Assembly: GCF_044324785.1 (NCBI RefSeq)
Contig: NZ_CP172127.1
From: Escherichia coli
GTDB lineage: Bacteria; Pseudomonadota; Gammaproteobacteria; Enterobacterales; Enterobacteriaceae
Length of the DNA stretch: 64,000 nt
Reading direction: 5' to 3' (one strand)
A model generated the notes under the pieces. The model saw nothing but the letters and a program-made list of their open reading frames with translations. It did no database searches and had not been told where the DNA came from. This document shows, one piece after another, positions 25,061 to 26,116 of this stretch; positions within the stretch are counted from its first letter, which is position 1, and each line of letters starts with the position of its first letter. The translations under genes were made by a program, and so were the position numbers.

Positions 25061-26116
25061 ATGACGACATTTATTCAGCTTCATTTGTTAACCGCTTACC
25101 CTGCTGCCAACCTTAACCGTGATGACACCGGTGCGCCAAAAACTGTGGTACTGGGTGGAGCAACGCGTCTGCGCGTTTCCTCACAAAGTCTGAAACGTGC
25201 GTGGCGCACTTCTGCACTTTTTGAACAGGCACTGGCGGGCCATATTGGTATTCGCAGTGGGCGTATTGCGCGTGAGGCGGCAACTATCCTGATTGAGAAA
25301 GGCATCTAAGAGAAAAAAGCCATCGAATGGGCGGCAAAAATTGCGGATTATCTTGGGAAAGCTAAAAACGACAAAAAACCAAAAGATCCGCTCACTAACG
25401 CCGAAACTGAACAGCTAGTCCATATCAGCCCGGCAGAATTTGACGCCGTAAAAGCGCTGGCCCATCAACTGGCCGAAGAAAAGCGCGCGCCAAAAGAGGA
25501 AGATCTCGCTTTGTTACGTAAAGATCGCATGGCGGTAGATATCGCTATGTTTGGTCGTATGCTGGCGAATAAACCCGAATTTAATGTTGAAGCCGCCTGC
25601 CAGGTCGCGCATGCATTTGGTGTCAGTGAAACGATTGTCGAAGATGATTTTTTCACCGCCGTTGATGATTTGCGCCAGGCTTCTGAAGATGCCGGTGCCG
25701 GGCATCTTGGTGAAACCGGATTCGGTTCAGCACTTTTCTACACCTATATCTGCATTGATAAAGATCTGCTGGTCGAAAACCTCGGCGGTGATGAAGCGTT
25801 AGCTAATCAGACCATACGCGCCTTTACGGAAGCTGCGCTTAAAGTCTCCCCCACCGGTAAACAAAACAGTTTTGCCAGTCGTGCCTACGCCTCCTGGGCG
25901 CTGGCAGAAAAAGGCACCGAACAACCGCGTTCTCTGGCGGCGGCTTTCTATGAACCCATTAACGGTACCGGGCAGTTAGAGGTGGCGGTGCAGCGTATTA
26001 CAACGCTTCGCGAAAATATGAATACGGTCTACGAACAGAAGACCGAATGCGCAAGCTTTGACGTGATGAACAAACAGGGAAGCATGAAGGACGTGCTGGA
26101 CTTTATCTGCGCGTAA
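25061..26116 (+). pseudogene. casC: Cas7e/CasC with in-frame TAA at codon 83 (25307..25309)
   Basis: Track shows two ORFs (25061..25309 and 25511..26116) in the same frame; translating straight through gives one continuous 351-codon Cas7-like frame broken only by the single TAA. Confidence 0.75.

Follow-up and report, generated by a model that had tools for sequence, protein, structure and literature searches.

A premature stop codon at position 83 of cas7e interrupts an otherwise intact type I-E CRISPR-Cas locus in Escherichia coli

The DNA analyzed here, a stretch of 64,000 nucleotides that we refer to as the window, is part of an Escherichia coli chromosome, with 98-99.9% identity to RefSeq E. 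coli genomes. It contains a type I-E CRISPR-Cas locus with the gene order cysH-hok-cas3-casA-casB-cas7e-cas5e-cas6e-cas1-cas2-CRISPR-iap. All eight genes of the signature set (cas3, cse1/cas8e, cse2/cas11, cas7e, cas5e, cas6e, cas1e, and cas2e) were detected with the type I-E NCBIfam models in one cluster and in canonical order, and the annotations of E. coli strains N3 and Res13 list the same type I-E gene set at this locus. By descent, the locus belongs to the common non-K-12 variant of the E. coli type I-E system, of which it is an ordinary example, and the experimentally studied CasC from K-12 is only a distant relative of the window Cas7e (PDB 4qyz_D, E = 1e-28). The features of the locus are as follows, in window coordinates.

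2200..2777, plus strand: second type I-E CRISPR array, on the queE/ygcE side; 10 repeats and 9 spacers, distal repeats degenerate
19822..22521, plus strand: cas3; 899 aa, intact, no internal stop, TIGR01587 and TIGR01596 domains, length as in N3
22522..22950, plus strand: cas3-casA intergenic region; 429 bp, with an AT-rich segment and an inverted CRISPR-repeat-like sequence at 22551-22574
22951..24513, plus strand: casA/cse1; 520 aa, intact, full-length match to TIGR02547 (610 bits)
24510..25046, plus strand: casB/cse2; 178 aa, intact, full-length match to TIGR02548
25061..25309, plus strand: 5' fragment of cas7e; 82 codons and the premature TAA, TIGR01869 positions 1-79 (122 bits)
25307, plus strand: causal base; T in the window, G in N3, locus L002, and strain D7 (GAA, Glu83, to TAA)
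25310..26116, plus strand: 3' remnant of cas7e; original frame kept, TIGR01869 positions 159-325
26127..26873, plus strand: cas5e/casD; 248 aa, intact, own Shine-Dalgarno sequence
26855..27505, plus strand: cas6e/casE; 216 aa, intact
27502..28425, plus strand: cas1e; 307 aa, GTG start, intact
28422..28715, plus strand: cas2e; 97 aa, intact
28716..28811, plus strand: AT-rich leader of the cas-adjacent CRISPR array; 96 bp
28812..29451, plus strand: cas-adjacent CRISPR array; 11 repeats of 29 nt and 10 spacers of 32-33 nt

The original prediction described every cas gene other than cas7e as intact, with the adaptation genes kept and with ribosome-binding sites and overlapping starts preserved downstream, and the locus bears this out. 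The ORFs of cas3, casA, casB, cas5e, cas6e, cas1e, and cas2e are free of internal stops and have the lengths annotated in N3, and their products match type I-E NCBIfam models over approximately the whole profile (cas3 through models of its HD and helicase-core domains). A Shine-Dalgarno sequence, AAGGGG, lies 6 nt before the cas5e ATG, the ends of cas5e and cas6e share 19 nt, and 4-nt overlaps occur at both the cas6e/cas1 and the cas1/cas2 boundary. Among the Cascade subunits, it is cas7e that lacks an uninterrupted ORF, owing to a TAA at codon 83. The system is therefore type I-E by descent, yet Cascade itself is predicted to be missing. Between cysH and cas3, the window also contains a 50-aa ORF of the Hok/Gef toxin family (19475-19627), which is likewise annotated in N3, Res13, and D7.

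Both arrays were identified, with 20 matches where none are expected by chance; 11 repeats lie at 28812-29451. The cas-adjacent array has 29-nt repeats, spacers of approximately 32 nt, and an AT-rich leader; its last repeat is degenerate. The leaders of the two arrays share the motif AGTTGGTAGATTGT. No spacer targets another site within the 64 kb at up to six mismatches. Of the 10 spacers in the cas-adjacent array, only the one at the trailer end has a match in the much shorter array of N3. This oldest spacer (29391-29422), common to N3 and Res13, has a perfect counterpart in phages P1, P7, and SJ46 (33 of 33 nt when the last repeat base is counted). At 99% identity or higher, 97 plasmid records match the array, and these may be P1-like phage-plasmids. 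The second array shares six spacers with its counterpart in N3 (positions 3096-3795 of locus L007); three leader-proximal spacers differ, and N3 has two additional internal spacers. The difference at the leader end reflects either spacer acquisition or replacement by recombination after the arrays diverged. An isolated CRISPR-repeat-like sequence (four or fewer mismatches) is found at 3281-3309, about 500 bp past the second array, and N3 has one at the same relative position.

The region between cas3 and casA is longer than in some relatives, spanning 429 bp in the window and N3 versus 98 bp in Res13, D7, and locus L004 (gene coordinates were used for L004 and D7). Relative to locus L002, from which it is absent, the extra DNA shared by the window and N3 amounts to a net 332 bp, with approximately 27% GC over 22576-22900. 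It begins just past a solitary TTATCCCCGCTGACGCGGGGAACA (22551-22574), which, read in inverted orientation, is one mismatch away from a CRISPR repeat. The segment may be a remnant of an array or leader, or it may be a promoter region bound by H-NS. Its AT-rich composition would suit H-NS silencing, and it could conceivably act as a Pcas-type promoter.

The reading frame of cas7e starts with ATG at 25061 and ends with TAA at 26114-26116, and the TAA at 25307-25309 is the only other in-frame stop, as originally described. This stop is codon 83, directly after ...ATILIEKGI, such that 82 of 351 residues are translated. Residues 1-82 match positions 1-79 of the Cas7/Cse4/CasC model TIGR01869, and residues 157-351 match positions 159-325. 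Because the two halves are colinear within one profile and lie in the same frame, they do not represent a chance pair of ORFs. When Glu is restored at codon 83, the 351-aa protein scores 445 bits against a model cutoff of 178.05 and spans the whole profile of the Cas7e/Cse4/CasC family (TIGR01869, PF09344; structures 9uer, 5u07, and 4qyz/4tvx/5h9f). In the window, the ORF is interrupted, so that the encoded products are fragments. The N-terminal product scores 122 bits, below the cutoff. Candidate in-frame restarts are present at TTG 25511 (codon 151, with an SD-like GAGGAAG upstream) and ATG 25529 (codon 157), which would give C-terminal pieces of 201 and 195 aa, respectively. Such a putative restart piece scores 249 bits, covering positions 159-325 only. 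By homology, the gene is cas7e, and judging from the translated sequence, no product that it is predicted to encode spans the TIGR01869 profile.

We then compared codon 83 across relatives of the window. The closest complete genome is that of E. coli N3 (NZ_CP031609), which is 99.9% identical to the window over 24500-26900, a span that takes in casB, cas7e, cas5e, and the ends of the neighboring genes, and in which cas7e is annotated as intact. The two strains are alike in gene order, in the position of the locus between cysH-hok and iap, and in the 29-nt repeat, and the Glu-restored window Cas7e is exactly the N3 protein; they differ in codon 83 of cas7e and in spacer content. A base-by-base comparison placed T at position 25307 in the window and G in both N3 and Res13. 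Since N3 and Res13 carry GAA at this codon, the lesion is a single G>T change that converts GAA (Glu) to TAA (E83*). The prediction had suggested confirming by orthologue alignment that residue 83 is normally a sense codon. It is Glu in N3, L002, and D7, and also in the nearest solved Cas7e structure (PDB 9uer_E, 351 aa), which aligns end to end with the window protein (E = 2e-188). Cas7e proteins that naturally end or restart at this position, which would have offered a different explanation, did not appear among these orthologues.

The TAA could in principle be an error of sequencing or assembly that conceals an intact gene. In favor of this explanation, the TAA differs from the codon of the nearest complete genome by a single base, and it occurs in no RefSeq complete genome. 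Specifically, 71-mers that include the TAA, drawn from the window and L004 backgrounds, had no exact match in the 2,594 genomes that contain the cas7e region among 5,426 RefSeq complete E. coli genomes searched, which indicates that the clone is missing from this set. An exact 29-mer across the TAA likewise had no match in GTDB species-representative genomes. In the public protein collection, however, the allele is present. The exact 82-aa product was found on 140 public contigs from NCBI, ENA, and Logan assemblies, the longest of 5.68 Mb, and in 187 collection blocks; many of these contigs may come from isolates of a single clone or study, and independence was judged from differing accessions only. 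Three assemblies with unrelated accessions reproduce the window, TAA included, at 100% identity: GCA_958306885.1 over 20.2 kb, ERR12374231 over 13.8 kb, and SRR31121375 over 10.5 kb. Gene callers annotated the downstream 201-aa ORF on 120 contigs, and the 24 contigs that we read all have the same arrangement of genes, with the 82-aa fragment among them. For comparison, the intact window/N3-type protein was found on 41 contigs.

An identical truncated product in many separately accessioned assemblies excludes a one-off consensus error. In addition, the lesion is not a homopolymer indel but a substitution, which is atypical of consensus errors. We therefore regard an error at this base as exceedingly unlikely. 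Of the two explanations offered in the original prediction, a recent inactivating mutation stands and a sequencing error does not, and the suggestion that related strains be checked for the same TAA is answered by the public contigs. E83* is an allele of one clone that has been sequenced many times. It is already public, where it is annotated as a hypothetical protein or as Cas7/Cse4/CasC (HAL7706516.1 and MCV6069467.1). A search of the literature returned no description of a cas7e E83* allele, only general reports of cas frameshifts in natural isolates.

Alignment of the 64-kb window to N3 revealed a mosaic. Approximately 35 kb falls in 1-kb bins with two or fewer differences (13 differences in all), and this background is interrupted by patches of 1.5-5% divergence at window positions 3-6, 11, 15-20, 23 (casA), 27 (cas1), and 49-55 kb (mutS to the hyp region), as well as in the array region. 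The pattern is consistent with frequent imports by recombination around the cas and mutS-rpoS regions. Between 24 and 27 kb, only two differences separate the window from N3, namely the TAA and a synonymous change at 25234 that is private to N3. The part of cas7e located 3' of the stop is fully open and undiverged. This open 3' part and the near-identity to N3 at 24-27 kb indicate that the lineage separated from an N3-like ancestor very recently and acquired E83* only afterwards. At clock rates typical of E. coli, its age would be roughly on the order of centuries and not more.

The open downstream frame could also be read as a sign that Cas7e function is kept, either through read-through or suppression of the TAA or through two fragments that act as a split protein. 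The SD-like GAGGAAG ahead of the in-frame TTG at 25511 would fit the latter. However, the recency of the mutation, with two differences from N3 in 3 kb, accounts for the open frame. In E. coli, translation terminates efficiently at a TAA when the next base is G, which argues against read-through, and no tRNA gene, and hence no suppressor tRNA, lies within the 64-kb window. Low-level read-through, or an ochre suppressor elsewhere in the genome, may nevertheless occur. With a restart at codon 151 or 157, residues 83-150 would not be encoded at all, and the two pieces together would therefore fall short of a whole Cas7 fold. Moreover, natural Cas7e is not split at this point, given the sense codon in PDB 9uer and the absence of the TAA from all 2,594 region-carrying genomes. 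Retained function is thus very unlikely, if slightly less so than an error in the sequence.

The backbone of Cascade is a hexamer of Cas7e that holds the crRNA. E83* is expected to end translation after 82 of the 351 residues, so that the products would at most be an N-terminal stub and possibly a restart fragment of residues 151/157-351, neither of which would contain the whole Cas7 fold. Given that six Cas7e subunits are needed to hold the crRNA, Cascade should fail to assemble in the absence of whole Cas7e. Without Cascade, crRNA-guided interference would be lost, and so would primed adaptation, which requires Cascade and Cas3 in addition to Cas1-Cas2 (PMC10011333). Cas6e, Cas3, Cas1, and Cas2 are still encoded and look functional, and naive adaptation needs only Cas1-Cas2 and a repeat (PMC10011333). 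We infer the loss of interference in this strain from established type I-E biology. Collectively, we consider it highly probable that cas7e in the window is a recent, clonally inherited nonsense pseudogene that has lost its function, with the concomitant loss of Cascade interference and primed adaptation.

The genes cas1 and cas2 are distal in the same operon, and polarity or lost translational coupling may lower the expression of cas5e-cas6e-cas1-cas2. The untranslated stretch before cas5e is 817 nt long and contains 23.9% C and 26.6% G, and the excess of C over G within any 80 nt of it reaches only 10. The stretch is thus not C-rich, and its composition does not settle whether Rho-dependent polarity occurs. 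In E. coli K-12, the cas genes form a single operon under H-NS/LeuO control that is strongly repressed by H-NS (PMC10011333). Because the K-12 operon is reported to be silenced in this way, E83* is probably nearly neutral under ordinary conditions, with a small phenotypic cost.

The same mutation was found in a second lineage. In locus L004 (GCA_958328965.1), where position 10247 corresponds to window position 25307, codon 83 has likewise gone from GAA to TAA by the same G>T. The cas7e allele of L004 is a divergent one: 34 of its 1,056 sites do not match the window, and one of these is a synonymous site located 4 bp before the stop. The nearest complete relative of L004 is strain D7, in which cas7e is intact, and the G>T is the sole difference between the two over the 5.5 kb from casA to cas1. 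A 1-bp deletion also splits cas3 of L004 into pieces of 692 and 208 aa. E83* thus arose at least twice or, less likely, was transferred on a tract shorter than approximately 110 bp.

Recurrence raises the question of a mutational hotspot. We considered a quasi-palindrome that could template the change and rejected it as unsupported, since the single-strand fold of the 40 nt on either side contains no hairpin that the G>T would perfect. With RNA parameters, the fold of the same segment is slightly less stable for the mutant (-16.5 versus -18.2 kcal/mol). We likewise rejected the recurrence in L004 as evidence of selection or of a hotspot, because a look-up with the exact truncated product returns only lineages with the same stop.

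A shallow look at neighboring protein clusters (loci L010, L013, L016, L018, L019, L012, and L014) turned up other cas7e lesions in public E. coli assemblies. One is a nonsense change, Q56* (C>T). Single-base deletions occur at codon 143 and within the A6 runs of codons 85 and 105, that at codon 105 being seen on two alleles, one of which is from DEC8A. There is also an insertion near codon 39, as well as a deletion running from the 3' end of cas3 into the 5' part of cas7e. Some of the homopolymer lesions may be sequencing artifacts, and so may loci L011 and L017, which are heavily fragmented. Repeated lesions of such variety are expected if a rarely used system decays neutrally. In natural isolates, cas3 and cse1 frameshifts were previously described for the O26:H11 strains DEC9A, DEC9E, and DEC10D, whose systems the authors predicted to be inactive while noting that sequencing error was possible (PMC5592225). 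As in the window, one cas gene is broken there by a point lesion and the rest of the I-E locus and its arrays remain in place. The O26:H11 lesions are frameshifts in cas3 or cse1, whereas the lesion described here is a substitution in cas7e that was verified across many assemblies.

Alternatively, the loss of Cascade could be adaptive, with E83* as a recurrent route to it, if, for instance, it allowed cells to live with a P1-like phage-plasmid that the array targets or protected them from autoimmunity. The same G>T on a second, divergent allele, as the sole difference from D7 over 5.5 kb, is compatible with this idea, as are the greater number of contigs with the truncated form of the window type than with the intact form (120 versus 41) and the perfect match of the trailer spacer to P1/P7/SJ46. 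However, the recurrence surfaced through a look-up that could find only coincidences of this kind, and the number of possible routes is small, as only 108 single-base changes in cas7e create a stop, of which 42 are G:C>T:A. The many different cas7e lesions found elsewhere are those expected from neutral decay, the operon is reported to be silenced in E. coli (PMC10011333), and no self-targeting spacer lies within the 64-kb window at up to six mismatches. Contig counts, for their part, mirror the sampling of clones and not their fitness. An adaptive loss therefore appears unlikely. Somewhat less likely still is a stronger version, in which E83* marks either a mutational hotspot or a "Cascade-off, Cas1-Cas2-on" state that is recurrent and under selection, with at least two origins and spread in a successful clone. 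If such a selected state were real, the clone could keep targeted elements such as P1-like phage-plasmids yet retain its adaptation module.

Our preferred reading, a recent nonsense pseudogene inherited within a clone, describes ordinary decay of a cas gene. E83* is biologically unremarkable as a pseudogene and involves no new mechanism, and its sole mildly unusual element is the identical change in a second lineage. For annotation and strain typing, the clone should be scored as null for CRISPR interference despite a cas operon that looks full and two arrays, and cas7e is better annotated here as a pseudogene than as two small coding sequences. The allele adds one more well-verified case to the decay of the E. 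coli type I-E system by repeated point lesions, a pattern consistent with a silenced system that is only weakly selected today.
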